A DNA stretch of 57,385 nt from Nanobdellota archaeon (GTDB taxonomy: Archaea; Nanobdellota; Nanobdellia; Pacearchaeales; GW2011-AR1), in assembly GCA_030611805.1 (NCBI GenBank), contig JAUWPB010000003.1:1-57385 (forward strand), given 5' to 3'. The notes beneath the pieces are model-generated. The model ran no database searches. It was not told where the DNA came from and worked only from the letters and a program-made list of their open reading frames with translations. Both the position numbers and the translations under genes were made by a program. Below, piece by piece: positions 4,773 to 44,320 of this stretch; positions within the stretch are counted from its first letter, which is position 1, and the number at the start of each line of letters is the position of its first letter.

Positions 4773-5573
4773 ATGATTGAATCAAAAGTCAAACAAACTC
4801 TAAGAAAAATCAAACTTCCCACAAATACAAAAATCCTCGTGGCTTTGTCAGGAGGAAAAGATTCTGCTGTAACTGCTTATTTATTGCAAAGATTTGGGTT
4901 TAAAATTGAAGGATTGTATATTGATTTGAGAATAGGAAAATATAGTGAAGATTGCTTGAAAGCTGTAAAAGAATTATGCAAGAGGTTAAAGATTAAATTA
5001 CATGTTTATGATATAAAGAAAGAGCAGGGAAAAACAATGCAGGATATTTGGAAGAAGATAAAAAAGAAAAGGTTGAACAATTGTGCTGTTTGCGGGGTTT
5101 TTAAAAAATGGATTTTAAATAAAACAGCAAGAAAATTCAAAGCCGACAAAATTGCAACCGGTCATAATTTAGACGACGAGGCCCAGACTTTTTTAATGAA
5201 TGTCTTTAAAGGCAGCCCGGAGTTAAGTGCAAATTCAGGAGCAATTACCAAAAATATAAAAGACAAGAAATTTATTCCAAGAATCAAACCTTTGTTTTAT
5301 GTTTTTGAGGAAGATGTCAAGAAATATGCCATTCAAAAAAAATTGCCTTTTATTAAAGGTAAATGCAGATACTCTCAGGAATCATACAGGGGAGAAGTAA
5401 GAAATTTTATCAATAGTTTGTCGGGAAAAGACAAAAAAAATATTATGAAAAACTTTCAAAGTTTTTCTGGGAAAATTCAAAAGGATAAAAAAACAAAAAT
5501 GCTATATTGTGAGGTTTGTGGTGAACCATCAAGAGGAAAAATTTGTAAAAGATGCGTACTATTTAGACATTAA
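4773..5573 (+). CDS. ttuA: PP-loop ATPase, tRNA 2-thiolation protein (TtuA/NcsA family)
   Basis: PP-loop ALSGGKDSAV plus Cys pairs CAVCG and CEVCG..CKRC. The track start at 4755 is non-ATG; the first ATG is at 4773. Confidence 0.8.
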   Translation: MIESKVKQTLRKIKLPTNTKILVALSGGKDSAVTAYLLQRFGFKIEGLYIDLRIGKYSEDCLKAVKELCKRLKIKLHVYDIKKEQGKTMQDIWKKIKKKRLNNCAVCGVFKKWILNKTARKFKADKIATGHNLDDEAQTFLMNVFKGSPELSANSGAITKNIKDKKFIPRIKPLFYVFEEDVKKYAIQKKLPFIKGKCRYSQESYRGEVRNFINSLSGKDKKNIMKNFQSFSGKIQKDKKTKMLYCEVCGEPSRGKICKRCVLFRH

Positions 5574-5630
5574 TAAAAAATTATTTCCTCTTATCACAAT
5601 ATTTAGTAAATCAGGTTTGATATTAATTAT

Positions 5631-6101
5631 ATGGAAAAGGGTCTGGAAATATTGCTTGAAAAAATTCCAAAGAATGGCATGTCAAAAAAGTGCCAGGAGT
5701 TTTTTCCCTTTATCACAAAATATTATTTTGAGGGAAAACCCCAAAAAGATTGTCCATCCAAATTTGGAAAACAAAACATTAATCTTGTATATAATAGGTT
5801 AAATCAAATAAAAATAAATGGTCTAAAAAAAATAAGCGGGGTCCTTGCAAAACATCCAAAAGATATTGAAGATGATGTTGCATTTGCCGATGCAGTTATA
5901 GAATATAGTTTTTATTTTAAAAAATTAAAAAAAGAAATTTTTAAAATTTTTAAAAAGCTCAATACAAAAAATAGAAATATTTTGAATAAAAGATATAAAG
6001 AAGATAAAAAATTTAATGAAGATTATCATTCACTACAAGCTCTTACAAGAAACCCAGACTTTTATGTTTTTATCATAGACAAAATACTGGATAAAAAATA
6101 A
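5631..6101 (+). CDS. hypothetical protein (Lys-rich C-terminal half)
   Basis: 156-aa ORF with no motif I recognise. Confidence 0.5.
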   Translation: MEKGLEILLEKIPKNGMSKKCQEFFPFITKYYFEGKPQKDCPSKFGKQNINLVYNRLNQIKINGLKKISGVLAKHPKDIEDDVAFADAVIEYSFYFKKLKKEIFKIFKKLNTKNRNILNKRYKEDKKFNEDYHSLQALTRNPDFYVFIIDKILDKK

Positions 6102-6104
6102 AAA

Positions 6105-6380
6105 TTACTTTTTCTTTGCTATTTTCTTTTTAACAGCTTTTTTTCCTGGCTTTGCTTTATTTGATTTGCAACATTTCATTTTTGAAAACACAAAGATATA
6201 AAGAATTGGCAAAATTCCTACTGTATTAAATACTGCTAACACGATGAACCAAACTACTGAACCCTGTCTTGCTGATTTCCACAATGCTAAAAGCTTCCAA
6301 ACTGCTGACCAGACAATAATGATTATAAATAACCACAAAGAAATTCCAAGCTGAGATGATATAGTTGTTAAATAATCCAT
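6105..6380 (-). CDS. small two-TM membrane protein with Lys-rich tail
   Basis: ISLWLFIIIIVWSAVWKLLALW and VVWFIVLAVFNTVGILPILYIFVF, followed by KKAVKKKIAKKK. Confidence 0.55.
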   Translation of the reverse strand: MDYLTTISSQLGISLWLFIIIIVWSAVWKLLALWKSARQGSVVWFIVLAVFNTVGILPILYIFVFSKMKCCKSNKAKPGKKAVKKKIAKKK

Positions 6381-6493
6381 TTTTCCCTCTTTTACATTTT
6401 AAAGGGAGCGTTGTTTAAAAATATTTTTGATGTGTCACCTCTTTAAAATAATTCTAAATGTTTAAATACTATTTATTGCTAATCTTTTTGCTT

Positions 6494-6509
6494 ATACAAC
6501 TTATAGTAA
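6494..6509. promoter_or_regulatory. candidate NrdR box 1 (degenerate)
   Basis: ATACAACTTATAGTAA matches about 11/16 of the NrdR-box consensus as I recall it. Its start is 31 bp from box 2. Confidence 0.35.
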
Positions 6510-6524
6510 TAAAGGGTATTAAAT

Positions 6525-6540
6525 ATACAATATATTGTAT
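6525..6540. promoter_or_regulatory. candidate NrdR box 2 (perfect 16-bp palindrome)
   Basis: ATACAATATATTGTAT is self-complementary, about 14/16 to the consensus acaCwAtATaTwGtgt, and lies 35 nt upstream of the nrdR ATG. Confidence 0.6.
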
Positions 6541-6574
6541 GTCTCTTTTAAATTGGGTCGCGCTAACAAATAAA

Positions 6575-7012
6575 ATGAATTGTCCATTTTGTTCAAACAC
6601 CACATTAAAAGTAACAGATAAAAGAACTTCTCCTGAAGGCATAAGGCGGAGGAGAGAGTGTTTAAAGTGCAAAAAGAGGTTTACAACTTCTGAAAGAGTG
6701 GTGGAAAATAGCTTTTACATCATAAAAAAAGATAAAAGGAGAGAAAAATTTGAAAGGGATAAATTAAAAAACGGGATAGAAAAAGCATTTGAAAAACGTC
6801 CTGTTTCAAAAGAAAAAATTGATAAAATGATAAACGACATTGAAGAACAATTAAGAAGAAGAGGGAAAAAAGAAATCAAGAGTTCTGTTCTCGGAGAATT
6901 AATTATGAAAAAAATAAAAAAATTAGACAATGTTGCTTACATAAGATTTGCTTCTGTGTACAGGGACTTTCAGGATGTTAGAGATTTTAAGCGGGAGTTG
7001 AGGAGGTTATAA
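6575..7012 (+). CDS. nrdR: transcriptional repressor NrdR (Zn-ribbon + ATP-cone)
   Basis: MNCPFCSNT...CLKCKKRFTT zinc ribbon followed by an ATP-cone-like region. The track start at 6458 adds an implausible hydrophobic extension. Confidence 0.88.
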   Translation: MNCPFCSNTTLKVTDKRTSPEGIRRRRECLKCKKRFTTSERVVENSFYIIKKDKRREKFERDKLKNGIEKAFEKRPVSKEKIDKMINDIEEQLRRRGKKEIKSSVLGELIMKKIKKLDNVAYIRFASVYRDFQDVRDFKRELRRL

Positions 7013-9546
7013 TGGCAAAATATAGTGATGGGTTAGAAGATAAATTAGATATTTCCCAAGTCTCTGTAACAGTATTAGAAAGCAGATATTTAACAAAAGA
7101 CCTTTCTGGAAAATTGCTTGAAACAGGAGAAGACATGTTTAGAAGAGTGGCAAAAGATATTGCTTGTGCAGATGCTTTGTACTTGCCTGAATTCAAAGGA
7201 AAAATTAATCCTGATATACCCACCAAAGAACTTTATAAAATATGTAGAGGCAATGAGCAAATAGAAAAAAGAGAACAAGAATTTTTTGACATTATGAGTA
7301 AAAATTATTTTTTGCCTAACTCTCCAACTTTAATGAATGCGGGGAAAAAATTACAGCAATTATCTGCTTGTTTTGTTTTGCCAATAGAAGACAGTATTGA
7401 AGGCATATTTAATACTAAAAAATATATGGCAATAGTTCATAAAACAGGGGGGGGAACCGGTTTTAGTTTTTCAATATTAAGACCAAATGGAGCATTCATT
7501 CATTCTACAAATGGATATTCTCCAGGACCGTTATCTTTTCTTTTTACATTTAATGAAGACGCCGGGCAAATAACTCAGGGAGGTAAAAGAAGAGGAGCAA
7601 ATATGGGAATCCTAAGAGCAAACCATCCAGATGCACTGTGTTTAACAAGAGTTAAAGAAGAAGAGGGCGTATTAAAAAATTTTAATCTTTCAATAGCTTT
7701 TACAGATAAAGAAATAGAAGCTATCAGGAATGACGACTATATTTTAATGGAAGACCCCAGAAAAGAAGTAGAATATACTATTGAAAATGCAAGAAAAAGA
7801 GCAAAAGACATACATTTTGGAAAAGGCGATATATTCAAAACATCATGGAGATTATCTAATGATGAAAAATCAATAATTGACAATTATTCTGAAAAAGAAA
7901 TTGGAAAAGTTGAAGATAATAAATTATATCTCAAAGCAAAAAGTTTATTTGATATTATCATAGAAGGTGCATGGAAAAAAGGAGAACCAGGAATAATTTT
8001 TATAGATAAAATAAATAAATATAATCCCACTCCTGGACTTGGAGATATAGAAGCTACAAATCCTTGTGGAGAGCAACCTCTTCTTCCTTATGAATCATGC
8101 AATCTTGGAAGCATAAATTTAAGCAAGATGGTTGATAAAGGAAAAATTAACAAATCTCGTTTAGAGAAAACTATCCGCTCAGCTACAAGATTTTTAGATA
8201 ATGTAATTGACAGAAATAATTATCCTTTAAAAGAAATAAATGACATCACCAAAGCAAATAGAAAGATTGGATTAGGAATAATGGGGTTTGCCCATATGTT
8301 AGTGGATATGGGAGTTAGTTATCAAAGCCAGGAAGCCGTAGATACTGCAGAATATGTGATGAAATTTGTAAGAGATGTTGCTAGAAATGAATCACAAAAA
8401 CTTGCAGAAGAAAGAGGGGCATTTTCAAATTTTGACAAAAGTATTTACAAGGATGAAAAACCTCTTAGAAACTCTACTACAACCACTCTTGCTCCCACAG
8501 GAACAATCGGAATAATTGCATCTACTTCACAAGGGGTTGAACCAATTTTTAAGCTTGTTACATTAAGAAAAGTAAAAGATACTCTTGGAAAAGATTTAGT
8601 TGAAACAGACAGGGCGTTTAAAAAATATTTGCAGGAAAAAGATTTGTATGATGAAGACATTATGCAAAGAATGGAGAAGGAAGGATTAGGGATTGATGGT
8701 TTATTGTTACCTAAAAAAACTAAAGATGAAATTAAAAGACTATTTGTTACGGCTCATGATGTTGTTCCTGCACAGCACATAAAAGTTCAGGCAGCTTTTC
8801 AAAAATATACAGATAATGCTGTGAGTAAAACAATAAATATGCCAGCTGAAACAACAAAGGATGATATTGCCAAGGCTTACTTAATGGCTCATGAAATAGG
8901 ATGCAAAGGTTTGACAATTTACAGAGATAAAAGCAGAGAATTTGAATTATTAACTGGTGTTGAAGGATGTCTTGAAGAAAAAGTAGGGAAAGGATTTAGG
9001 GTAATTCCTGTTAGAGGGAGAGATTTGTCAAGGGTTAGAGGAATTCAGGGAATAACTTATGAAATAAAAACAGGATGCGGACCTCTTTTTGTAACTGTAA
9101 ATTATGATGAGAAAGGAGCAGTAGAATTATTTTCAAACATGAATCCTCCAGGAGGGTGTGCTGCTGCGCAAACTGCAACAGCAGGAGTTCTTAGTTCATT
9201 TAATTTGCATAGGGGAGAATCTCCTGAAAGAATCGCTAAACACCTTAGGTCAACACAATGTCCGGAATCAAATGATTTGCTTAGAAAAAACTCCTGCCCT
9301 CAGGCAATGGCAAAAGCATTAGATTTATTCCAAAAAGATTTTGAAAAAATTCAAAAAGGATATACTGGACTTTTGTTTGAAGAAAAAAGTGAGGAGAAAA
9401 ATAATCCTTCAAATAAAATTATAGACAATAGTAATGGTTTGAATTCAGTTGATAAATTATTTTGTCCGGAATGCAACTCAAGATTAGAATTTTCTGGAGG
9501 GTGTAAAGGAGGATTGTGCAATAATTGTGGTTTTGCTAATTGTTAA
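7012..9546 (+). CDS. nrdJ: class II (adenosylcobalamin-dependent) ribonucleotide reductase
   Basis: Active-site block NPCGEQPLLPYESCNLGSINL, 844 aa, C-terminal Cys-rich tail CPEC..CNNC. TAATG overlap with nrdR and GAGGAGG SD. Confidence 0.92.
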   Translation: MAKYSDGLEDKLDISQVSVTVLESRYLTKDLSGKLLETGEDMFRRVAKDIACADALYLPEFKGKINPDIPTKELYKICRGNEQIEKREQEFFDIMSKNYFLPNSPTLMNAGKKLQQLSACFVLPIEDSIEGIFNTKKYMAIVHKTGGGTGFSFSILRPNGAFIHSTNGYSPGPLSFLFTFNEDAGQITQGGKRRGANMGILRANHPDALCLTRVKEEEGVLKNFNLSIAFTDKEIEAIRNDDYILMEDPRKEVEYTIENARKRAKDIHFGKGDIFKTSWRLSNDEKSIIDNYSEKEIGKVEDNKLYLKAKSLFDIIIEGAWKKGEPGIIFIDKINKYNPTPGLGDIEATNPCGEQPLLPYESCNLGSINLSKMVDKGKINKSRLEKTIRSATRFLDNVIDRNNYPLKEINDITKANRKIGLGIMGFAHMLVDMGVSYQSQEAVDTAEYVMKFVRDVARNESQKLAEERGAFSNFDKSIYKDEKPLRNSTTTTLAPTGTIGIIASTSQGVEPIFKLVTLRKVKDTLGKDLVETDRAFKKYLQEKDLYDEDIMQRMEKEGLGIDGLLLPKKTKDEIKRLFVTAHDVVPAQHIKVQAAFQKYTDNAVSKTINMPAETTKDDIAKAYLMAHEIGCKGLTIYRDKSREFELLTGVEGCLEEKVGKGFRVIPVRGRDLSRVRGIQGITYEIKTGCGPLFVTVNYDEKGAVELFSNMNPPGGCAAAQTATAGVLSSFNLHRGESPERIAKHLRSTQCPESNDLLRKNSCPQAMAKALDLFQKDFEKIQKGYTGLLFEEKSEEKNNPSNKIIDNSNGLNSVDKLFCPECNSRLEFSGGCKGGLCNNCGFANC

Positions 9547-9573: not shown

Positions 9574-9999
9574 ATGCTAAAAATAAAAGTAAAAAAAATT
9601 CATCCTAATGCAGTTATCCCAAAGTATGCTTATGAAGGGGATGCCGGCATGGATCTGCATTCTGTTAAAAATTATGTTTTAAAACCAATGGAAAAAACAA
9701 TAGTTAAAACAGGGTTGCAAATGGAGATTCCAGAAAAATATTTTGGTTCTATCAGAGACAGGTCAGGTTTGGCTGCAAAGCATTCTATACACACTTTGGC
9801 AGGAGTTATTGACTCTCATTATAGGGGGGAAATTGGAGTTGTGTTAATAAATTTAGGAGAAAAAGAATTTAAAATAAATAAATATGATAGAATTGCTCAA
9901 TTAATAATCCAACCCATTAAAATAGCAGAAATTCAGGAAGTTGAAAATCTTTCTGAAACTTCAAGAGGAGGAGGGTTTGGGAGTAGTGGAATAAATTAA
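9574..9999 (+). CDS. dut: dUTP diphosphatase (trimeric dUTPase)
   Basis: AGVIDSHYRGEIGVVLINLG and C-terminal RGGGFGSSG. The track start at 9568 is TTG; the ATG is at 9574. Confidence 0.9.
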   Translation: MLKIKVKKIHPNAVIPKYAYEGDAGMDLHSVKNYVLKPMEKTIVKTGLQMEIPEKYFGSIRDRSGLAAKHSIHTLAGVIDSHYRGEIGVVLINLGEKEFKINKYDRIAQLIIQPIKIAEIQEVENLSETSRGGGFGSSGIN

Positions 10000-10006
10000 A
10001 TAAATT

Positions 10007-11059
10007 TCAGCCCCAGAATCTTGGATATGCTTGAGGCACCACACCTGAAAATTTTTCAATTTTTACTTTTCCCTGTTTAAGTATATCCTCTGTTAACTCA
10101 GAATTATATCCTCCCAAATAAAACACTTTTTTAATTCCTGATTGAACAATTTCTTTTGCACAATGTGAACAAGGATATATTGTTACGTGAAGTGTTGCTC
10201 CAATAAGATTTTTTCCTTCTCTTCCGGCATTAATTATGGTATTTTGCTCTGCATGAACTCCTCTGCACATCTCATGCCTTTCTCCGGATGGAATATTCAG
10301 TTCTGTTCTTATGCATCCTAATTCTAAACAATGAGGTGAACCTCTTACTGCTCCATTATATCCGTCAGAAGAAAAAATATTATTTTTACTGGCTACTGCT
10401 CCGACATGCCTTCTTAGACATGTTGACCTATGACTTGCTTCAAAAGCCCCTCTCATATACTTTTCCCCAAAACTTGGTCTCCTTTTTTGATCTCTCACCA
10501 AATTAACAAAACCATTTTTCCCTTCTGCAAATTCTTTTTTCGCTTTTTCAATAGTTGAATAATTATTTAGAAAAAAATAATCAGAATAATTCATGCAATA
10601 ACTTAAATTTTGTTTTCCAGAATCGTCAGAAAACATTTCTCTTTTTTCCTGTTCAACAAATTTCTCAAAGCTTACATTATCTGTTTCAGATTGTGCTTTA
10701 ACTGCTCGGTCATATCTTATCTTTTGCTCTGCATCAACAGCAATAAGAAAAAAATCTTCTCTTCCATATTTTCTCAAAAAATCAACTTCTCCTTTAGTTC
10801 GTATGCTTTCAATTACAGAATCTTTTCCTTTCTCTTTTGCTTTGTTATATAATTGTTCAACAATAAAACTTGGGGAATTTTTCTCTCTTAATTCATTTGC
10901 AATTTCAATCATTGAATCTCTGTTCACTGGTTTATCTCTCTTCTCAATTTCTTCTATTAGAAATTCTCTTACAGAATAATGCTCAAAATTATTCTCCTTA
11001 AGAACTTCAACTAAAGTTCCTTTTCCTGCTCTTAATGTTCCTGTCAATCCAATTATCAT
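10007..11059 (-). CDS. fusion protein: N-terminal P-loop (nucleotide-kinase-like) domain + C-terminal dCMP deaminase
   Basis: Walker A GLTGTLRAGKGT at the N-terminus; zinc motifs HAEQNTIINA and PCSHCAKEI in the C-terminal half. Confidence 0.8.
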   Translation of the reverse strand: MIIGLTGTLRAGKGTLVEVLKENNFEHYSVREFLIEEIEKRDKPVNRDSMIEIANELREKNSPSFIVEQLYNKAKEKGKDSVIESIRTKGEVDFLRKYGREDFFLIAVDAEQKIRYDRAVKAQSETDNVSFEKFVEQEKREMFSDDSGKQNLSYCMNYSDYFFLNNYSTIEKAKKEFAEGKNGFVNLVRDQKRRPSFGEKYMRGAFEASHRSTCLRRHVGAVASKNNIFSSDGYNGAVRGSPHCLELGCIRTELNIPSGERHEMCRGVHAEQNTIINAGREGKNLIGATLHVTIYPCSHCAKEIVQSGIKKVFYLGGYNSELTEDILKQGKVKIEKFSGVVPQAYPRFWG

Positions 11060-11141: not shown

Positions 11142-11960
11142 TTATTTAAATAAATCATCCAGTTTCATTGTTCTTAATTTAGCTAAATCTTCGGCATAAC
11201 CATAAAGATGAAGTCCTTTGCTTTCAACTATCATTTCTCCGTCTTCAACACCAATCTCTCCTGCCATATATTCTTTTAAATTTTGAATCCCAGCCAGATT
11301 TGCAGGCATACCACCCCATAAATCCCAGGAACGAAACATAACTGGTGCAAAATGAAGTTTTCCGTCCTGAATCCTTGTGTCAATTGAACGAAGACAAGGT
11401 GGGTCAAGAAGGGTCAGGTCTGAGGGATGTGCAATCTGGAGAACCATCTGATTATTACGAGGTCCATGTTTTTTATAAGTATCAATAACCCATTCTATCT
11501 GATTAATATAAAGAGCTCCTTTCTTTTCAAAAACAATTTTTCCATCTGGTTCAGAGAACAATCTTTCATCCATAACATCTTTATCCAGTCCCCTTAACCT
11601 CATTAATTTCTCTCCGGTAATTTGGGCTTTAGTCATTCGCTCTCCATAAGTATACGATTCACCAGCCTCTTTTTCAGGAGTCATAAGATATTCAAGATAA
11701 GACCTGTCATATCCTTCTCCTCCATAAATATATGCTTCTTCAACAGGATTTGGTATCCCGCACGCCGGAGGAATATCTGGCAACAATGGTTGTGCACCAG
11801 GATATTTCACATGACCAATAAAATAATCATATTCTAAACGCGTTTGCCCTGCATAAGAACCCCGATCAATTTTAAATCTCTTACCTTTGTCAAAAATATC
11901 ATTAACTGCCTGAAACCACAAGTCAGGTAAATCCCTTGCCTCTATTTTGTGAATCTCCAT
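11142..11960 (-). CDS. thyA: thymidylate synthase, divergent archaeal ThyA type
   Basis: PPCLRSIDTRIQDGKLHF...FRSWDLWGGMPANLAGIQNL parallels the ThyA PPCH...RSxDxxLGxPFNIA blocks. Confidence 0.78.
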   Translation of the reverse strand: MEIHKIEARDLPDLWFQAVNDIFDKGKRFKIDRGSYAGQTRLEYDYFIGHVKYPGAQPLLPDIPPACGIPNPVEEAYIYGGEGYDRSYLEYLMTPEKEAGESYTYGERMTKAQITGEKLMRLRGLDKDVMDERLFSEPDGKIVFEKKGALYINQIEWVIDTYKKHGPRNNQMVLQIAHPSDLTLLDPPCLRSIDTRIQDGKLHFAPVMFRSWDLWGGMPANLAGIQNLKEYMAGEIGVEDGEMIVESKGLHLYGYAEDLAKLRTMKLDDLFK

Positions 11961-13687: not shown

Positions 13688-13701
13688 GATAATAAAATAC
13701 A

Positions 13702-13776
13702 TGGCCCCGAAGGGATTTGAACCCTCGACACCTGGATTAAAAGTCCAGTGCTCTGACCAAGCTGAGCTACGGAGCC
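13702..13776 (-). tRNA. tRNA-Lys (anticodon UUU), 75 nt, no encoded CCA
   Basis: Cloverleaf folded by hand: acceptor GGCTCCG/CGGGGCC, D arm GCTC..GAGC, anticodon arm CTGGA-CTTTTAA-TCCAG, T arm GAGGG-TTCAAAT-CCCTT, discriminator A. Confidence 0.92.
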
Positions 13777-13885
13777 ATATTTGGCGACTGCGAAGCAACT
13801 TAAAAGGATGAAGTCTCGAAATGAGAGGTCACCTCGTTAGAGGTTCTTGTGCCGGGAGCCTTGGCGAGACGGTATCCCTGTGGGA

Positions 13886-37308: not shown

Positions 37309-38469
37309 TCAAAACTCCAAAATCTTTCTTGCGTTTTCTAAAATCCTGTTTTCAAAAACTGTTGTTGTCTCTCCCTCTTGTTTTTCAATTGAAAGGGAGT
37401 TCATTAATTGCGGAATCAATTCATTAAAACCAGAAGGATTTTTCTCCGAATAAATCTTGATTGTTTCTTCCTCAACATTTTCAGAATCCTTAATTTCAAA
37501 TTCTAACTCAACTTCTTTTGTTTTCAAGTCATGGGTGTTCCTTAACATAAAGTACGAATTTTTTTGTTTTACAAATTCCTCTATTTGCACAAATTTAATG
37601 TCTGAATTTTTCCCCTTTTCCAATTCCCCTTTTAATCTCAAAAGAACGATTTTATTTTCTAAATCTTTTTTATTCAGTTCAGAAATTATCTGCTCTGTTG
37701 CCAAAAGTGCATTTTTAATGTGAATTTCAAAGGATACAATCTCTTTAATTTTTAATTCTATTTTTTGCAAATGATTTTCTGCTTCAGTGTCAACAATATA
37801 AAAACTTCCGTGTTCTAAATCTTCGAGTTCCTGAAAATTGTTAGGAAATACCGGACCAGGGTAAACAAAATTTTTGTATTGGAAATCCATGTGCAAGTGC
37901 CCTAAAGCATAATAATCTGCATGCGGGAGCAAGTCTGTTTCTATAGCATCTATCGGAAGTGTGCCTTTTGCCTTGTCAATTGTTGTGTGCAGCATAAAAA
38001 TTTTAAACATTCCCGGAGAGTCATTTAACTTTATTTTCCTCAGGTCTTGAACTTCTAAACTTGATTTCTTTCCAGGATAACCATAAATCGCGACACCTTT
38101 ATGAAGCACAGGGTTTAACAAAATTAAATTATCTTTTTCTTCAAAATCTGTTACATTCCTGCAAAATCCTGCCTTCTCTAAAACATCTAAAAAAGTTTTT
38201 CCAGAAACAGAGTAATCATGAGAACCGGCAATTATAAAGCAAGGAATTTTGGCTTTTTTGAGTTTCCTGAATTCAGCAAAAGTTTCTTTAAGAATTTCAA
38301 TTGAAGGATAAGCTGAGTCAAATAAATCTCCTGCTATTAAAACAAAGTCTAATTTTTTATTTATGCAAATCTCAATTGTTTTTTGAAATGACCGGAAATT
38401 CAAATCCTGCAGTGGCTGTTGTTTCCATCCTCCAAGATGAACATCTGCGATGTGTGCAAATCTAACCAT
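37309..38469 (-). CDS. mre11: Mre11/SbcD-family DNA repair nuclease
   Basis: Phosphoesterase motifs HIADVHLG, GDLFD, AGSHD, GHLH. Confidence 0.87.
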   Translation of the reverse strand: MVRFAHIADVHLGGWKQQPLQDLNFRSFQKTIEICINKKLDFVLIAGDLFDSAYPSIEILKETFAEFRKLKKAKIPCFIIAGSHDYSVSGKTFLDVLEKAGFCRNVTDFEEKDNLILLNPVLHKGVAIYGYPGKKSSLEVQDLRKIKLNDSPGMFKIFMLHTTIDKAKGTLPIDAIETDLLPHADYYALGHLHMDFQYKNFVYPGPVFPNNFQELEDLEHGSFYIVDTEAENHLQKIELKIKEIVSFEIHIKNALLATEQIISELNKKDLENKIVLLRLKGELEKGKNSDIKFVQIEEFVKQKNSYFMLRNTHDLKTKEVELEFEIKDSENVEEETIKIYSEKNPSGFNELIPQLMNSLSIEKQEGETTTVFENRILENARKILEF

Positions 38470-38645
38470 GATTAAAAGTTGGAGAAGGGATATATAAAGA
38501 TTATTGGAGAGAAGTGTAAGGATTGGAGTTTTGCGTTAAAAATTAAGTTTATAATTCTTAATATGCGTTGTTTAACAATTGAGAATTTATCTTAAATAAA
38601 AAAGAGGAAGGAAGAATTTATAATCTGTAATATTTTTATTAAATT

Positions 38646-39524
38646 ATGTTTACTAAATACAAAAAAAATCCAATCATTATTCCAGATTATAAAATAAGCT
38701 ATGAAAAAGAGTGCGCATACAATCCTTGTGCGATTGTTCATCATAAAAAAATACATCTTATTTATAGGGCAGAAGGACAATACAGGGATTACATTTCCAG
38801 TCTTTGTTTAGCAACAAGTGAAGATGGATATAATTTTACTAAATATAAAAAAAATCCAATAATTAAACCTACAAAGACTGAAGAAAAAAGAGGGTGCGAA
38901 GACCCAAGAATAACAAAAATTAAAGATACATTTTATTTAACTTACACAGCATATAATGGACATGATATTTCGTTATCGCTGGCAACATCCAGAGACCTCA
39001 TTCATTGGAAAAAACAAGGTATCATACTAAAAAACACGAAGTCAGGAGATATTTATCCAAAAAAGATTAATAATGAATATTTGATGTTTGTTGGTAAGGG
39101 AGATATATCTATTGCAAGATCTTCAGATTTAAAAAATTGGAAATTAGATAAAGAACATTTTTTATGCCCAAGAAAAAATTATTTTGACTCCAGATTGGTA
39201 GAAGTTGGACCCCCATTTATAGAACTTAAAGATAAATTGGTGATGATCTATAATTCATCAGATAAGTATATTAGATACTCTCCATCTTTTATTATATTGG
39301 ACAAGAAAAATCCTCTAAAAATTTTATATAGGCATGATAAGCCAATGCTAAGTCCTAATAGCCAGTTTGAATTGTTTGGAAAAGTGAATAATGTAATTTT
39401 TGCAGAAGGGCTTGTTAAATTTAAGGGAAAATATTTTTTATACTATGGCGGGGCAGATAAATGTATTGGCGTGGCAACAGCTACTCAAAAAGAAATTGAA
39501 AAGAGTTTTCCTCCTGTAAGATGA
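38646..39524 (+). CDS. GH130-family glycoside phosphorylase/hydrolase (DUF377 type)
   Basis: Repeated YKKNPII, CAYNPCAI, GCEDPRITKI, YYGGADK blocks. Confidence 0.82.
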   Translation: MFTKYKKNPIIIPDYKISYEKECAYNPCAIVHHKKIHLIYRAEGQYRDYISSLCLATSEDGYNFTKYKKNPIIKPTKTEEKRGCEDPRITKIKDTFYLTYTAYNGHDISLSLATSRDLIHWKKQGIILKNTKSGDIYPKKINNEYLMFVGKGDISIARSSDLKNWKLDKEHFLCPRKNYFDSRLVEVGPPFIELKDKLVMIYNSSDKYIRYSPSFIILDKKNPLKILYRHDKPMLSPNSQFELFGKVNNVIFAEGLVKFKGKYFLYYGGADKCIGVATATQKEIEKSFPPVR

Positions 39525-39553
39525 ACATCTGCAATATGGGCAAATCGTGTCAT
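39485..39553 (-). pseudogene. 5' stub of mre11 (MTRFAHIADVHLTGG..., 22 codons)
   Basis: 29/36 nt identical to the genuine mre11 start (38434..38469). A promoter-like region is also partly duplicated. It overlaps the GH130 stop in antisense. Confidence 0.65.
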
Positions 39554-39782
39554 GAAAATTTTAGAAACAAGAAATATTTAAAGATGATTGTGATTAAGGG
39601 TATAAAAAATTAATTTGATGTGTGTTGGAAAGTATTGTTTTTAGATCCTATTGGAAGATTATCAATAGTTTATTATTGAGAATCTTATGTTAGACGAAAT
39701 CTTATTGTTCTCTAAATAAAAAACAGGAAGCTTAAAAATTTGAAATAGTTTTCTTTATAAATAACGAGGTACCATCTAATTC

Positions 39783-40343
39783 ATGGGAATAGTTACAGGA
39801 TATTTAACAAATCCGAGTTTATCCAAAGTAGATCTTGGGGAAAAGATTGGAAAATTTGAAAGGTTAGGTCTTGAAATTAGATTATTTGATGAAGGATTAA
39901 GAAGGGGGAATACAATTGGTCCAAATGGAATTTTACTTTCTGGTAATGTTGATTTAAGTTCAACAGATATCATGAAAATAATGTATGGTTCAGAAATGCC
40001 TAAAAATATAAAAGGTTTGACTTATGATGTTTCATCATCAGAAGGAGGGGAGGATTTTGACGTTAGAAGATTAATTTTTGGAAATTTTGATTCTTATTTT
40101 GTTTTAAGGGTTAATATTGAAGAGAATAAAAGCAGAGTTTTAGATTTTAATAAAGATTATTTAGAAAAACAAGAAGATATTGGTTTTAGATATGTTGAGC
40201 CAGGATATGTTGCTTATGAATACTTAGTCAATGGCGATGATTTTAATTTAAGATTCAAACAGGCTAAACAGGTTTTATTAAAAGAAAGATTAAAATTAAA
40301 TAAAAAAGAAACAACAATTATTCATAATTTGTTACAAAATTAA
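39783..40343 (+). CDS. hypothetical protein (186 aa)
   Basis: ORF with CTTTATAAAT box 20-30 nt upstream. Confidence 0.55.
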   Translation: MGIVTGYLTNPSLSKVDLGEKIGKFERLGLEIRLFDEGLRRGNTIGPNGILLSGNVDLSSTDIMKIMYGSEMPKNIKGLTYDVSSSEGGEDFDVRRLIFGNFDSYFVLRVNIEENKSRVLDFNKDYLEKQEDIGFRYVEPGYVAYEYLVNGDDFNLRFKQAKQVLLKERLKLNKKETTIIHNLLQN

Positions 40344-40412
40344 AGGAAAACATTTCAAATAATTAAAAAGCCCCTCTTAATTAATACCAATTATGAGGAA
40401 AATCCTGCAAGG

Positions 40413-40453
40413 ATTTTGCCCAAATTTCTTCCACTTCGTTCCAGAAACTTCTC
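40413..40453. repeat. direct repeat copy 1 (41 bp)
   Basis: attttGcccaaatttcttccacttcgttccagaaacttctc is 40/41 identical to 41153..41193 and exactly 740 bp away. Confidence 0.92.
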
Positions 40454-40475
40454 TAAATCCTGATGTTAAATGAAA

Positions 40476-41048
40476 TAATATTTTAGTGTGCTAAATGCAA
40501 ATATTTAATAATATAAAATAATTGTAATAAGATATGAAAGTTGTTTTATACATGGCAATAACTGCAAATGGATATATTGCTAAAGAAAATAATGAAACTC
40601 CTTGGTCTGATGAAGAATGGGAAAGTTTTTCTACAAAAGTTAAAGAGATTAAAAATATTGTAATAGGTAGAAAAACTTTCGAGATTATGGAAAAAGGAGG
40701 GGAGTTTCAAAAAATAGACAATCCATTCACAGTTATAGTTTCTAATAAAAAAGAAAATAATTCAAATTTTGTAAATTCTCCTGAACAAGCAATTGATTTG
40801 TTAAAAGAAAAAGGTTTTTCTGAAGTTCTTGTTGCAGGAGGAGGAATATTAAACTCATCATTTATGCAAAAAGGTTTAGTCGATGAAATTTATTTAGATA
40901 TTGAACCTTTTTTGTTTGGAAAAGGAATTAAACTTTTTGCAGATAATGACTTCGAAACAAAATTAGAATTATTAGAAACAAAACAACTTTCAAAAAATAC
41001 AATACAATTACATTATAAGATTCTTAAGTAACGCACACTAAAATATTA
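40476..41048 (+). mobile_element. 573-bp single-gene cassette bounded by perfect 16-bp inverted repeats
   Basis: TAATATTTTAGTGTGC (40476..40491) and GCACACTAAAATATTA (41033..41048). No recombinase inside. Confidence 0.35.
40534..41031 (+). CDS. dihydrofolate reductase-like protein (RibD C-terminal domain family)
   Basis: MKVVLYMAITANGYIA...IGRKTFE...VLVAGGGILNSSF...DEIYLDIEPFLFGKG. Confidence 0.78.
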   Translation: MKVVLYMAITANGYIAKENNETPWSDEEWESFSTKVKEIKNIVIGRKTFEIMEKGGEFQKIDNPFTVIVSNKKENNSNFVNSPEQAIDLLKEKGFSEVLVAGGGILNSSFMQKGLVDEIYLDIEPFLFGKGIKLFADNDFETKLELLETKQLSKNTIQLHYKILK

Positions 41049-41152
41049 CTCTGCGGTTTGCTTTCAGCAAATCCTCGGGGACGCTGCACTTTCGTCGCTA
41101 TCGCTCCTCACCCTCATATAACAAGGGATAAAAGGAAAAATGCTCAGCTCGC

Positions 41153-41193
41153 ATTTTACCCAAATTTCTTCCACTTCGTTCCAGAAACTTCTC
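41153..41193. repeat. direct repeat copy 2 (41 bp), in the recQ 3' flank
   Basis: See copy 1. A degenerate extension reaches the recQ stop codon (41207..41209). Confidence 0.92.
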
Positions 41194-41206
41194 ATAATCG
41201 TGAATG

Positions 41207-43003
41207 TTATCCCTTCTCAAAACCATTCTCTCCAACATACTCATTTATCACTTTCAAAAAAACATCTCCAAAACTTTTTAATTTTGTTTCTCCAACTCCA
41301 TTAATTTTTAAGAAACTTTCTTTGTTACACGGAAAATAATATGCCATCTCCTGAAGCGAGGCATTACCAAAAATAACAAAAGCAGGCACGTTCCTTTCAT
41401 CAGCTATTTTCTTTCTTAATTCTTTCAACTTCCTGAATAATATTCTGTCGTAATCTAAATCTTCTTTAATTTTTTTCGTGATTATTTTTTCTTCCTCTTT
41501 TGGTTTTTGAATTTCTATCTTAACTGGAGTTTGCAAAAATTCTCTTGCTTTGAATGTAAGTGAAAGTGTTGGATAATCTCCTTCACTCTTTTTAATAAAA
41601 TCCAGATTAATTAAAGATAAAATAATTTCTTTTAATTCATCATCTGAAAAATCCTTTTCAATTCCAAAAACAAAGAATTTCTTATGCCAGTCTTTCACGC
41701 TTTCTTTTCCTTTTAAAACTTTAATTATGTAATTTGTTCCAAAAAAACCTCCTGTTAAATCAATGCAGGAAAAAATGTTTTGTGCAATTTTTGTGGCATT
41801 AAAAAGTTCTTTTTTGGTTAAGCAAATATCACATGCATTGCATTTTTCATTTGAACATTCTTCTCCAAAATAATTAAGAATATATTTTCTCCTGCAACTT
41901 AATGATTCAGCATAATCAATTATCTCTCTTAACTTTCCTTTTTGATACTCGCGGGTTTTCTCATTTTCAATTTGATTAATAAAAAAGTCATGTTTTCTTT
42001 TGTCCCTTGCTGCATAAAACATTACACAATCGCTTTTTAGTCCGTCTCTGCCTGCTCTTCCAATTTCCTGATAATATCCTTCAATGGTTTTTGGAAATGT
42101 GCAATGAATCACCATCCTTACATTGGATTTATCAATTCCCATTCCAAAAGCAATAGTCGCAGCAATAATTTGCACTTCATCTTTTATGAACAACTCCTGA
42201 TTTTTTTTCCTTGTTTCATCATTTAATCCTGCATGATAAAAAACAGCCTTATACCCTCTTTCAATTAAATCGCCTGCCATCTTCTCTGTTTCTTTGCGTG
42301 AAAAACAATAAATTATTATCTGTTCATTCTCATGTTTTTTTATTAACTCTAAAATTTTATCAAATGAGTTCTTTTTTTTCATGACAAGAAGATTAAGATT
42401 CTCCCTGTTGCAACTTGAAATAAAAATTTTCGGATTCTTTAAAGAAAGCTGGTTTATTATATCTTCTCTGACTTTTTTTGTTGCCGTGGCTGTTAAAGCC
42501 ACCATAGGAACTTTTGGGAACATTATTCTTAAATTTTTTAAACTTCTATAATCCGGGCGGAACTCATGCCCCCATTCAGAAATGCAATGAGCTTCATCAA
42601 CTGCAATTAAACTTAAATCAAGCGTCTTTAAAAATTTCTTAAAGCTGTCTTGCGCCAATCTTTCCGGAGCAACATAAAGAATCTTTGTTTCTCCTTGGTA
42701 AATCCTATATTGAATATCTATAATGTCTGTATATGACAAAGACGAATTAATGAACTCTGCGGAAATTCCATTTGCTTTGAGGCTGTCAACCTGATCTTTC
42801 ATGAGTGCAATGAGCGGAGAAATAATTAAAGTCAGCCCATTAAATTTTAATGCGGGAAATTGATAGCAAAGCGATTTTCCTCCTCCTGTAGGCATGAGAA
42901 TAAAAGTGTCTTGGTTTTGCAAAATACTATTTATTATATCTAATTGCATTGGTCTAAATTCTTCATAACCAAAATAAGCTTTAAGGAGATTTTTCATTTT
43001 CAT
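41207..43003 (-). CDS. recQ: ATP-dependent DNA helicase RecQ (with RQC/HRDC-type C-terminus)
   Basis: MPTGGGKSLCYQ, DEAHCISEWGHEFRPDY, TATAT, AFGMGIDK, QEIGRAGRDG, and a Zn-binding C..C..C..C block. Confidence 0.93.
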   Translation of the reverse strand: MKMKNLLKAYFGYEEFRPMQLDIINSILQNQDTFILMPTGGGKSLCYQFPALKFNGLTLIISPLIALMKDQVDSLKANGISAEFINSSLSYTDIIDIQYRIYQGETKILYVAPERLAQDSFKKFLKTLDLSLIAVDEAHCISEWGHEFRPDYRSLKNLRIMFPKVPMVALTATATKKVREDIINQLSLKNPKIFISSCNRENLNLLVMKKKNSFDKILELIKKHENEQIIIYCFSRKETEKMAGDLIERGYKAVFYHAGLNDETRKKNQELFIKDEVQIIAATIAFGMGIDKSNVRMVIHCTFPKTIEGYYQEIGRAGRDGLKSDCVMFYAARDKRKHDFFINQIENEKTREYQKGKLREIIDYAESLSCRRKYILNYFGEECSNEKCNACDICLTKKELFNATKIAQNIFSCIDLTGGFFGTNYIIKVLKGKESVKDWHKKFFVFGIEKDFSDDELKEIILSLINLDFIKKSEGDYPTLSLTFKAREFLQTPVKIEIQKPKEEEKIITKKIKEDLDYDRILFRKLKELRKKIADERNVPAFVIFGNASLQEMAYYFPCNKESFLKINGVGETKLKSFGDVFLKVINEYVGENGFEKG

Positions 43004-43061
43004 TAAAAAATTTCCAGTGTTTAAAAAGATATAAGTTGATTGTGATTAAAGAAAATTATTT

Positions 43062-44276
43062 TTATTTCTTTATTTTAGAATATAAGATTATTGCAGGAAT
43101 TAAAATAAATGAAGCAAGAAAAATAGTATTTTGAGGACCGATTTTGTCTGCACTAAATCCTGCTAAAGGGGCGGCAATAATTATCGATACTGAAGCCATC
43201 ATACTATCAAAAGAACTTATTGTTGCTCTCATTTTTCCAGGAACAAATTTTTGGAAATACATTAATCTTACTGGGCTATAAAAGTCATACATTGACATAT
43301 ATAATATGGAAAGGATCAAAGCAAAAATTAAAGTGTTAATAAATCCTGTTGCAAATAAAAATAATGCCATTAAAGATAAAACAGTAAAAAGATAATTTTT
43401 ATGACCTCCAAGTTTTGTAATTAACGATTTCGAAAAATAAGGGATAAAAATTCCAACAAACATGAGTGCTGAATAAAAGTAACCAAACCAATATTCTTGT
43501 AATCCTAAATCTTGAAGGAAAGGGAACCATGTTAGTTCCCCTGCAAAATTATTTACAAACACCATAACTATTGAAATTAATATTAAAGAAAAAATAGTTT
43601 GGTGTTTTAAAGAATAATTTACTGACTTTTTAGTATGTAAAAATAATTTTTTTGCGTGTTTTTTTAGGTGTTGCTTTTTTCTTACAAAGTGTTCTTTTCC
43701 AAATAAAAGAATTATTGAAGTTAAAATCATTGCCCCTCCTGTTACAAGCCAGATTATTTCAAGACCAAAATTTTTAACAAGTAATGCCCCAATAATTCCT
43801 GAAACTAAAAGAGCCATATTAATGAAACTATGTCGTTTAGTGAAAAACTCATGAATTAAACTTTTTCTTTTTTTATGTTTAAGTAAATCAATTATCCATG
43901 CTTCACCTGCTCCAGACATTAGTGTGCCAAAAGCACCCCAAAGAAAAAATAAAACTAAGATTAAATAAAAATCATGAATGAAAAATATAGAAAGTACTGC
44001 TATTCCTGAAAGAAATGCCCCTAAAATAACTGAAAATTTTCTTCCATAAACATCTGCAATAGCTCCTGTTGGAATTTCAAATAATACCATTGCTAATGCT
44101 GAAGCAGATGCAAAGAAACCAATTTGAGTTAAGGAAAGACCAATCCCTCTAAAATAAAGAATAGAAAAAGCTGGAATAATAAAAAGCATGGAAATTATTA
44201 ATGCATCAAAATAAAAAGGCCATAATAATTTAAGTTCATCTTTTTTAAAAAATTTCATCTTAATCCTCTCCCTCAT
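43062..44276 (-). CDS. MFS transporter
   Basis: About 12 predicted TM segments; GAIADVYGRK loop 2-3 motif. Confidence 0.85.
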   Translation of the reverse strand: MRERIKMKFFKKDELKLLWPFYFDALIISMLFIIPAFSILYFRGIGLSLTQIGFFASASALAMVLFEIPTGAIADVYGRKFSVILGAFLSGIAVLSIFFIHDFYLILVLFFLWGAFGTLMSGAGEAWIIDLLKHKKRKSLIHEFFTKRHSFINMALLVSGIIGALLVKNFGLEIIWLVTGGAMILTSIILLFGKEHFVRKKQHLKKHAKKLFLHTKKSVNYSLKHQTIFSLILISIVMVFVNNFAGELTWFPFLQDLGLQEYWFGYFYSALMFVGIFIPYFSKSLITKLGGHKNYLFTVLSLMALFLFATGFINTLIFALILSILYMSMYDFYSPVRLMYFQKFVPGKMRATISSFDSMMASVSIIIAAPLAGFSADKIGPQNTIFLASFILIPAIILYSKIKK

Positions 44277-44320
44277 TAAAAAATCAACACATTTAAATAT
44301 ATATTGAATTTATTAAAAAA

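Follow-up and report, generated by a model that had tools for sequence, protein, structure and literature searches.

A DHFR gene as putative cassette of an integrase-less integron-type array between recQ and mre11 of a DPANN archaeon

The DHFR gene and its repeats at the recQ–mre11 locus

The DNA analysed here is the 57,385 bp contig JAUWPB010000003.1 of a Nanobdellota archaeon (the window, by which we mean this whole stretch). Between recQ and an mre11-like gene, and antisense to both, it carries a gene of the dihydrofolate reductase (DHFR) family that is surrounded by direct and inverted repeats, together with a second small gene upstream. We suggest that both genes are cassettes of an integrase-less integron-type array (CALIN) and that the direct repeats belong to its attC-type sites. 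The host is a DPANN (Nanoarchaeota-type) archaeon: the window encodes a proteasome alpha subunit and aEF-1alpha, RecQ relatives at ∼64% identity carry the label Pacearchaeota, and the closest named DHFR cassette is found in a Nanoarchaeota metagenome-assembled genome.

The assignment of the gene product as RibD_C/DHFR-like in a preliminary description of the sequence agrees with the Pfam matches (Table 1) and with the closest solved structure, the DHFR of Thermotoga maritima (PDB 1cz3), which is matched over the full length (E 7e-19). About 25 nt upstream of the open reading frame (ORF) there is a TATA-like AT-rich stretch. The protein has 619 relatives in genomes of DPANN archaea and of the candidate phyla radiation (CPR), where the identities are 60–80%, and identities of 85–93% are reached on many short contigs.

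The direct repeat, already noticed at a distance of 740 bp, comprises positions 40413–40463 and 41153–41203, which are 92% identical over 51 nt with a start-to-start spacing of 740. Its 35 nt core occurs exactly twice in the 57 kb (0 expected by chance), and by local alignment the similarity extends to 40372–40468 and 41111–41209 (∼97 nt). The hairpins accompanying both copies do exist, but had been placed 2–3 nt off (see hairpins A in Table 1 for the true positions). Between the copies the gene is bracketed by a perfect 16 nt inverted repeat; its arms are exact, as described, and unique, no further copy with up to two mismatches being present in the window (0.13 expected). The 3' arm is followed by a GC-rich block, and here a GC content of 49% at 41050–41149, compared to ∼27% nearby, bears out the first impression. 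A known RNA can be ruled out for this block, as Rfam and tRNA scans of the window yielded only a tRNA-Lys (13701–13777), with the limit that Rfam holds no attC model. The RNA folding of 41030–41215 is unremarkable (z-scores −0.95 and −2.05).

A misassembly can be discounted because the separately assembled contig NODE_147 (43.6 kb, ENA analysis ERZ4220366) has the identical structure with 99.97% identity over 14.5 kb. The same locus could be inspected in four relatives (L139–L142) with RecQ orthologues of 88–89% identity. In L140 and L141 the site is empty: recQ, a 66 bp spacer and the mre11-like gene follow each other, and the covariance model R1 used below detects no attC. Relative to L140, whose RecQ is 89% identical to that of the window, positions 39598–41213 are an insertion (BLAST). 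L142 carries a different ORF of 277 aa at the same position. Thus, both the empty site and the alternative cargo that the preliminary description had considered are found among the relatives.

A covarying family of attC-type sites and the arrays that carry them

When public metagenome contigs were scanned with the pattern of the repeat core, CCCAAATTTN{8,38}AAACTTCTCNWAATC, at least 120 matching stretches were obtained. Further members of the repeat family, for which a search had been proposed, exist in metagenomes, but within the window there are only two. Among the matches listed, all have the same order of elements: GC block, R'', L'', hairpin A, CCCAAATTT, hairpin B, L' and R'. The repeat belongs to a long site, as seen in an array on contig L009, which has the bacterial neighbours GyrB, GatB and ThrRS. 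In this contig the spacer before the DHFR homologue is colinear with window positions 41049–41212. It starts with the 3' arm, the GC block, R'' (xATAAC), L'' (GGGATAAAAGG) and hairpin A, and it ends with CCCAAATTT, hairpin B, AAACTT, L', a short spacer and R' (G|TTATAC...AAT).

An alignment of 102 distinct sites (A2) allowed us to examine the pairing of these elements. In the proposed R, L and hairpin B stems 83.9% of the cells are paired, compared to 26–46% when the partners are slid against each other, and none of 500 shuffles matched the observed values. Compensatory changes are found at four L-box and four R-box positions. In the L boxes the switches are heavy (GC:41/AU:38; GC:59/CG:26; AU:61/UA:28; and AU:59/UA:28 at another position), and 80 of the 102 members pair in 10–11 of 11 L-box positions. 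The sites are asymmetric with a spacer of 1 nt on one side and 3–4 nt on the other. In addition, hairpin B has A.C as its third pair on the top strand (G.T on the bottom strand) in 102/102 sequences.

Covariance model R1, derived from alignment A2, detects exactly two sites in the window, both on the + strand and identical with the two repeat copies, as well as sites after the DHFR homologues in L009 and L010. The covariation of the family together with these model scores gives the imperfect palindrome, with paired R''/R' and L''/L' boxes enclosing a variable region, that characterizes attC sites. Over their whole length sites 1 and 2 are 56% identical. In the repeat region the two copies are 86% identical to each other, and each of them is 88–90% identical to unrelated metagenome sites. 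Since the copies are no closer to each other than to unrelated sites, the direct repeat did not arise by local duplication but represents the conserved 3' two-thirds of two adjacent sites of the attC type; neither duplication nor gene conversion is needed as its source. A lost C-terminus of RecQ was likewise rejected as origin of the repeat: the minus-strand frames hold stop codons and show no homology, and the HTH_40 extension of RecQ is unrelated to it. Within site 2 the stretch AAGGGATAA (41123–41131, L'' region) is the exact reverse complement of TTATCCCTT (41207–41215, the last recQ codons and the stop). In the array context this 9 bp stem is the dominant element of the predicted fold; it may be due to chance or may serve as a surrogate L' pairing.

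The left end and most of the length of the DHFR cassette were recovered in no fewer than five unrelated contexts, both archaeal and bacterial. These are of three kinds: an archaeal contig with an eIF-2-beta-like gene beside the cassette (L003, same ENA analysis as L001), a Nanoarchaeota array (L004–L008) and a contig on which the neighbouring genes, e.g. that of RecG, are bacterial (L002). The DNA homology of 85–90% spans only ∼40464/40466 to 41083–41132, and the sequence to the left of 40464/40466 is different in every context compared (L003, L004–L007, L002). The left breakpoint is exact, as three different upstream sequences join ...G|TTAAATGAAATAATATTTTAGTGTGC, with A instead of G in L004. 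In three independent contexts the homology thus breaks at G40465|TTAAAT, where a GTTRRRY core is cut between G and TT. The R'' of the cassette (RYYYAAC) is complementary to its own first bases: ATTTAAC in L004 and ATATAAC in the window both face TTAAAT. This recurrence agrees with the earlier view of a mobile unit with a single cargo gene and no recombinase of its own. Because the last junction, G41206|T41207, abuts the recQ stop codon, recQ is left intact. In viral contigs neither the attC core nor the 5' end of the DHFR cassette was matched. The 186 aa protein of the upstream cassette has homologues of 55–71% identity in unrelated contexts; behind one of them (L143) a GC block and an R''-N4-R' core are found.

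Such shortened cores are typical of the L004/L008 array, which consists of 8.6 kb of small ORFs, mostly on one strand (L004 1–9030; L008 1–8666), separated by 13 direct cores WTAAC-ARNR-RTTAKRYGCAAT. In these cassettes, too, the 3' RYYYAAC is complementary to the own 5' TTRRRY (ATTTAAC/TTAAAT, AACTAAC/TTAGTT, ACATAAC/TTATGT). The 13 consecutive sites consist of R''-N4-R' only, for example ACATAAC AAGG GTTATGTGCAAT, and have no L'', variable region or L'. They resemble 11-6-11 dif sites or simple attI sites, and their sequence suggests a fusion of L'' (GATTATG) to R' (GTTATG). We rejected the R''-N4-R' core of L004 as the complete recombination site, since L009 and the metagenome family have the long attC and the L004 cores are collapsed derivatives of it.

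The arms of the 16 nt inverted repeat are identical in the window and in L003, L004 and L008. As the coding sequence has diverged by ∼12% at the same time, selection may well act on the arms. Homology to other contexts reaches from G40465|T40466, 10 nt before the left arm, to at least 84 nt past the right arm. Because the left breakpoint G|TT lies outside the left arm, the arms lie inside the mobile unit and are not its termini, as had been assumed. Most ORFs in L004, L008 and L009 are flanked by inverted repeats as well, each cassette having its own sequence, so that the 16 nt repeat is a feature of the family. In L004 and L008 these repeats are perfect and 11–17 nt long, with one arm behind the ...CAAT of the core and the second, in most cases, at the stop codon. 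Of the metagenome cassettes, 26/83 have an inverted repeat with exactly matching arms of 11 nt or more, compared to 1/83 controls. The upstream cassette of the window has an imperfect ORF-flanking repeat (39732–39757 and 40341–40366, 26 nt at 81%). The GC-rich module is likewise present in L002, L004, L009 and most metagenome sites.

In the window itself the preliminary description had found no transposase or integrase, which is confirmed by a tblastn search with the array recombinase and by a Pfam check in which ten mid-size ORFs turned out to be housekeeping genes. In L009, a tyrosine recombinase of 271 aa is encoded divergently upstream of the array, and the motifs read in its sequence agree with an intact R-K-H-R-H-Y catalytic set. 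By tblastn over all fetched loci, homologues were found in 12 more attC loci, which had been retrieved only through the attC pattern or DHFR. In 11 of the 13 loci the gene is divergent from the array; the protein is ∼270 aa long. In the Woesearchaeota locus L010 the DHFR gene is the first cassette beside the recombinase, after a GTTATAC core. The recombinase is about equally similar to archaeal XerA (4a8e, 5hxy) and to VchIntIA (2a3v). It aligns to 2a3v in two pieces and lacks the region of IntI residues 177–240, i.e. the IntI-specific domain, which is considered essential for the recombination of attC sites. Among the protein families the recombinase scores best against XerA_Arch (222 bits, above the cut-off of 220), whereas the integron integrase family TIGR02249 reaches 202 bits and stays below its cut-off of 265. 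An adjacent IntI with the IntI-specific domain near patch III, which defines the complete integron as IntegronFinder uses the term, was not found. In L137 the recombinase homologue is present in two tblastn pieces ∼1.3 kb apart (5146–7152), and an insertion seems to have split the gene.

Table 1. Coordinates of features at the recQ–mre11 locus of the window
Feature	Position	Strand	Remarks
Putative upstream cassette with 186 aa ORF (39783–40343) of unknown function	39690..40465	+	start after R'-like core G39689|TTAGACGAAAT, read from sequence
attC-type site 1	40370..40479	+	holds direct-repeat copy 1; model R1 74.7 bits, E 8e-14; family alignment A2
Site 1, R''	40378–40385	+	degenerate; from sequence
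Site 1, L''	40387–40397	+	CCAATTATGAG; from sequence
Site 1, hairpin A	40399–40417	+	AAAATCCT/AGGATTTT; from sequence
Site 1, CCCAAATTT and hairpin B	40419–40450	+	from sequence
Site 1, L'	40451–40461	+	CTCTAAATCCT; from sequence
Site 1, R'	40465–40471	+	GTTAAAT; from sequence
Putative DHFR cassette (mobile unit), 741 bp	40466..41206	+	TTAAAT after the G|TT crossover point to G of next R'
5' arm of 16 nt inverted repeat	40476..40491	+	TAATATTTTAGTGTGC; perfect, cassette-specific
DHFR-family ORF, 165 aa	40534..41031	+	Pfam RibD_C 6e-19, DHFR_1 1e-8
3' arm of 16 nt inverted repeat	41033..41048	+	exact reverse complement of 5' arm; 1 nt after stop codon
GC-rich block of small hairpins	41049..41114	+	between 3' arm and R''
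attC-type site 2	41107..41220	+	holds direct-repeat copy 2; model R1 66.7 bits, E 6e-12; colinear with L009:9854–9971
Site 2, R''	41116–41122	+	ATATAAC; from sequence
Site 2, L''	41124–41134	+	AGGGATAAAAG; from sequence
Site 2, hairpin A	41137–41157	+	AAAATGC/GCATTTT; from sequence
Site 2, CCCAAATTT and hairpin B	41159–41190	+	from sequence
Site 2, L'	41191–41201	+	CTCATAATCGT; from sequence
Site 2, R'	41206–41212	+	GTTATCC; overlaps recQ stop codon; from sequence
recQ	41207..43003	−	flanking chromosomal gene (Pfam); stop codon 41207–41209 directly right of last G|TT junction

A proposed two-cassette array and its alternatives

We propose, with a probability of roughly 85%, that 39690–41206 is a two-cassette CALIN in which DHFR is carried as a 741 bp cassette and the direct repeats are parts of attC-type sites. 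A CALIN is defined by at least two attC sites in the same orientation within ∼4 kb and without adjacent integrase; in the window two + strand sites are found 740 bp apart and the recombinase is absent. According to this proposal a tyrosine recombinase supplied in trans would excise the DHFR cassette as a circle, which would be re-inserted by strand exchange at the G|TT of GTTRRRY-type core sites. The sites would fold as R''/R' and L''/L' stems around a variable region of two hairpins, and the direct repeat would represent hairpin B with its CCCAAATTT...AAACTT base, followed by L' and then R'. The expected circle junction would read ...CGTGAATG|TTAAATGAAATAAT..., and the junction of the excised array ...ATCCTGATG|TTATCCCTTCTC....

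A role for the inverted repeat may be derived from the predicted folds. In the circularised cassette the 16 nt arms are predicted to close a region of ∼180 nt (−28.5 kcal/mol for the top and −31.9 kcal/mol for the bottom strand), the predicted energies in the array context being −20.8 kcal/mol (top) and −24.8 kcal/mol (bottom). In the circular form the arms might thus lengthen the attC stem at its base, with the GC-rich block as spacer module between the 3' arm and R''.

Several observations do not fit easily with this proposal. Within the 57 kb the array-associated tyrosine recombinase was not found by tblastn. The L boxes pair weakly, in 6/11 positions in site 1 and in 7/11 in site 2, and the R'' of site 1 is degenerate; as the L boxes pair so poorly, both sites may be decaying and the mobility may have been lost. 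The cassettes seem to have their own promoters, which is not the case for classical integron cassettes. The right boundary at G41206 has no breakpoint between contexts and is deduced from the attC architecture common with L009:9854–9971. The homology to L004 and L002 already stops at 41130–41132, which can be explained by the collapsed or diverged attC of these two contexts. Finally, among the contexts of the 186 aa homologues no intermediate was found that has the 186 aa cassette and lacks DHFR.

The perfect inverted repeat and the direct repeat on both sides of the gene would also suit a non-autonomous transposon, bounded by the 16 nt arms as terminal inverted repeats and flanked by 41–57 nt of the recQ 3' flank as target-site duplication. 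In this way, at least for the arms and the duplication, they had been taken originally. We consider such an element extremely improbable. Homology with other contexts goes beyond both arms, the empty site does not contain the repeat sequence, and the repeat is a member of a family with at least 120 metagenome matches, where each copy has closer relatives than its partner, the two copies being 56% identical overall. Hence neither outermost inverted repeats nor a target-derived direct repeat, as required for an insertion sequence or a miniature inverted-repeat transposable element, are present. The empty site of L140 also speaks against a duplicated 3' untranslated region and terminator of recQ, as no such sequence follows recQ there. 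A different role at gene ends, namely that the repeats are structured 3'-end elements (terminators or similar to repetitive extragenic palindromic sequences) not engaged in recombination, and that the gene differences between strains stem from ordinary homologous exchange, is very unlikely in our opinion. It could account for the appearance of the sites as hairpin chains flanked by A and T runs and for the duplicated mre11 promoter sequence, instead of attC, beside the neighbouring GH130 and L142 insertions. However, it leaves unexplained that the left breakpoint lies exactly at G|TTRRRY in every context examined, that the R'' of each cassette is complementary to the own 5' TTRRRY, that the long-range L and R stems covary beyond the local hairpins, and that a dedicated tyrosine recombinase is encoded divergently beside the arrays in 11/13 loci.

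Somewhat less improbable, but still unlikely, is an integration of the Campbell type, in which a circular DHFR cassette and the resident site recombined homologously within their shared core of 35–41 nt, leaving two chimeric sites with the repeat as footprint. The 35 nt of exact identity in the middle of otherwise diverged sites and the mismatched L''/L' boxes of both window sites would be expected from such an event, and the L'' of site 1 indeed pairs slightly better with the L' of site 2 (9/11). Nevertheless, the cross-pairing scores of 9 and 8 equal the mean of random cross-pairs in the family (8.7), so that an exchange of the 3' halves between the sites is unsupported. Mismatched L boxes also occur elsewhere (e.g., L042, L074, L093), and each repeat copy resembles unrelated metagenome sites (88–90%) as closely as its partner (86%). 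Therefore, we prefer the two-cassette array over these alternatives.

Neighbouring insertions and known systems

The region around recQ contains further strain-specific insertions. In L142 a stretch of the mre11 promoter region, TAATCACAATCAAATTTATA, is directly repeated on both sides of the 277 aa cargo (9795–9851 and 10700–10751), and by its sequence the promoter duplication seems to accompany insertions that occur without attC at this hot spot. In the window a GH130 gene (mannoside phosphorylase-like, 38646–39524) is flanked by a diverged direct repeat of ∼250 nt (38395–38644 and 39492–39762), which covers the mre11 promoter together with the first 14 codons. In the copy behind GH130, a pseudo-gene start (39512–39553, minus strand) reads MTRFAHIADVHLTGG and matches the mre11 start of L140; the functional mre11 gene starts with MVRF, as in L142. 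Since L140 has no GH130, this gene seems to be a second insertion, through which mre11 received a replacement 5' end. Next to recQ, on its side towards the pyruvate:ferredoxin oxidoreductase gene, the window has a gene for a major facilitator superfamily transporter (43062–44276, minus strand; region 43011–44277). All four relatives lack this gene and have recQ and the pyruvate:ferredoxin oxidoreductase gene side by side. The transporter gene is a third insertion specific to the strain, and beside it no attC was detected. The close relatives of RecQ (among them P0123 and P0128, L139 8001–10133) comprise short proteins of 596–598 aa, like that of the window, and long ones of 710–724 aa, which have an HTH_40 domain at the C-terminus. 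The last residues of the short proteins differ (FEKG, LKKN, VEGKE) at the same point, which suggests repeated truncation or recombination at this boundary.

The recQ–mre11 hot spot is thus seen in three states: empty, with a different cargo, and with the DHFR cassette pair. With DHFR a core metabolic gene travels as a ready-made cassette among ultra-small archaea and bacteria, its DNA being 85–90% identical across domains. The window also encodes a thymidylate synthase-like protein (11142–11960) and a dCMP deaminase fusion (10007–11059), and a captured DHFR would suit thymidylate synthesis of the ThyA type in this reduced genome. The interest of the system rests mainly on the recombinase and on the inverted-repeat arms, which are a testable structural feature. 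More tentatively, and at somewhat less than even odds, we suggest that DPANN archaea and CPR bacteria share an integron-like capture system with a compact XerA/IntI-related recombinase of ∼270 aa lacking the IntI domain, cassettes with own promoters, and ORF-flanking arms that extend the stem. If so, IntegronFinder would not see this recombinase, many of the CALINs in Archaea would in fact be complete platforms, and the recombinase clade could be an intermediate between Xer recombinases and integron integrases. Should the enzyme indeed recombine attC-type sites, this would bear on the origin of integrons from Xer-type enzymes, and current tools might under-call complete integrons in Archaea and CPR.

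Modules that depend on Xer recombinases are the pdif modules of Acinetobacter plasmids and the integrative mobile elements exploiting Xer (IMEX). They are alike in that small gene modules without own recombinase are moved by enzymes of the Xer family, and a likeness to 11-6-11 dif sites is seen in the collapsed cores of L004/L008 (xCATAA-CAAGGG-TTATGTGCAAT). In contrast, the boundaries of pdif modules are short, double-stranded XerC/XerD sites of ∼28 bp that are inverted relative to each other. The sites described here are direct, ∼110 nt long and show structural covariation, and the dif-like cores of L004/L008 are direct as well.

The preliminary description knew of no standard element resembling the locus, but it matches an integron-type cassette with attC sites. 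Classical examples are the dfrA and dfrB cassettes of class 1 integrons and the Vibrio cholerae repeat (VCR) cassettes of the Vibrio superintegron. As in these, a single ORF is followed by an attC of the order R''-L''-variable region-L'-R', the crossover lies at the G|TT of GTTRRRY, and the first bases are complementary to the own inverse core. DHFR is a typical cargo there, too, and similar neighbouring sites give the appearance of direct repeats. Unlike in the classical cassettes, the variable region is unusually conserved (CCCAAATTT...AAACTT, three-way fold), own promoters seem to be present, and the ORF-flanking arms would form an additional extension of the stem. In addition, the host is an archaeon and IntI is absent.

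Integrons and CALINs in Archaea, some of them in Nanoarchaeota, and the sharing of cassettes between Archaea and Bacteria have been reported (Ghaly et al. 2022, PMC9668308). In a search for literature on Xer- or XerA-associated attC arrays in DPANN or CPR nothing beyond this study was found, which, given the limited library, is weak evidence of novelty. The archaeal CALINs of that study are likewise arrays of small ORFs between folded attC sites, most of them without detectable IntI. On the contrary, the recombinase beside the related arrays described here lacks the IntI-specific domain which its authors required, and neither the cassette-specific inverted repeats spanning the ORF nor the GC-rich module are described in the text of that paper. 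CALINs were thus already known in Archaea, and the feature in the window fits this kind, with the unusual features of its ORF-spanning arms, its GC-rich module and the XerA/IntI-like recombinase of its related arrays.

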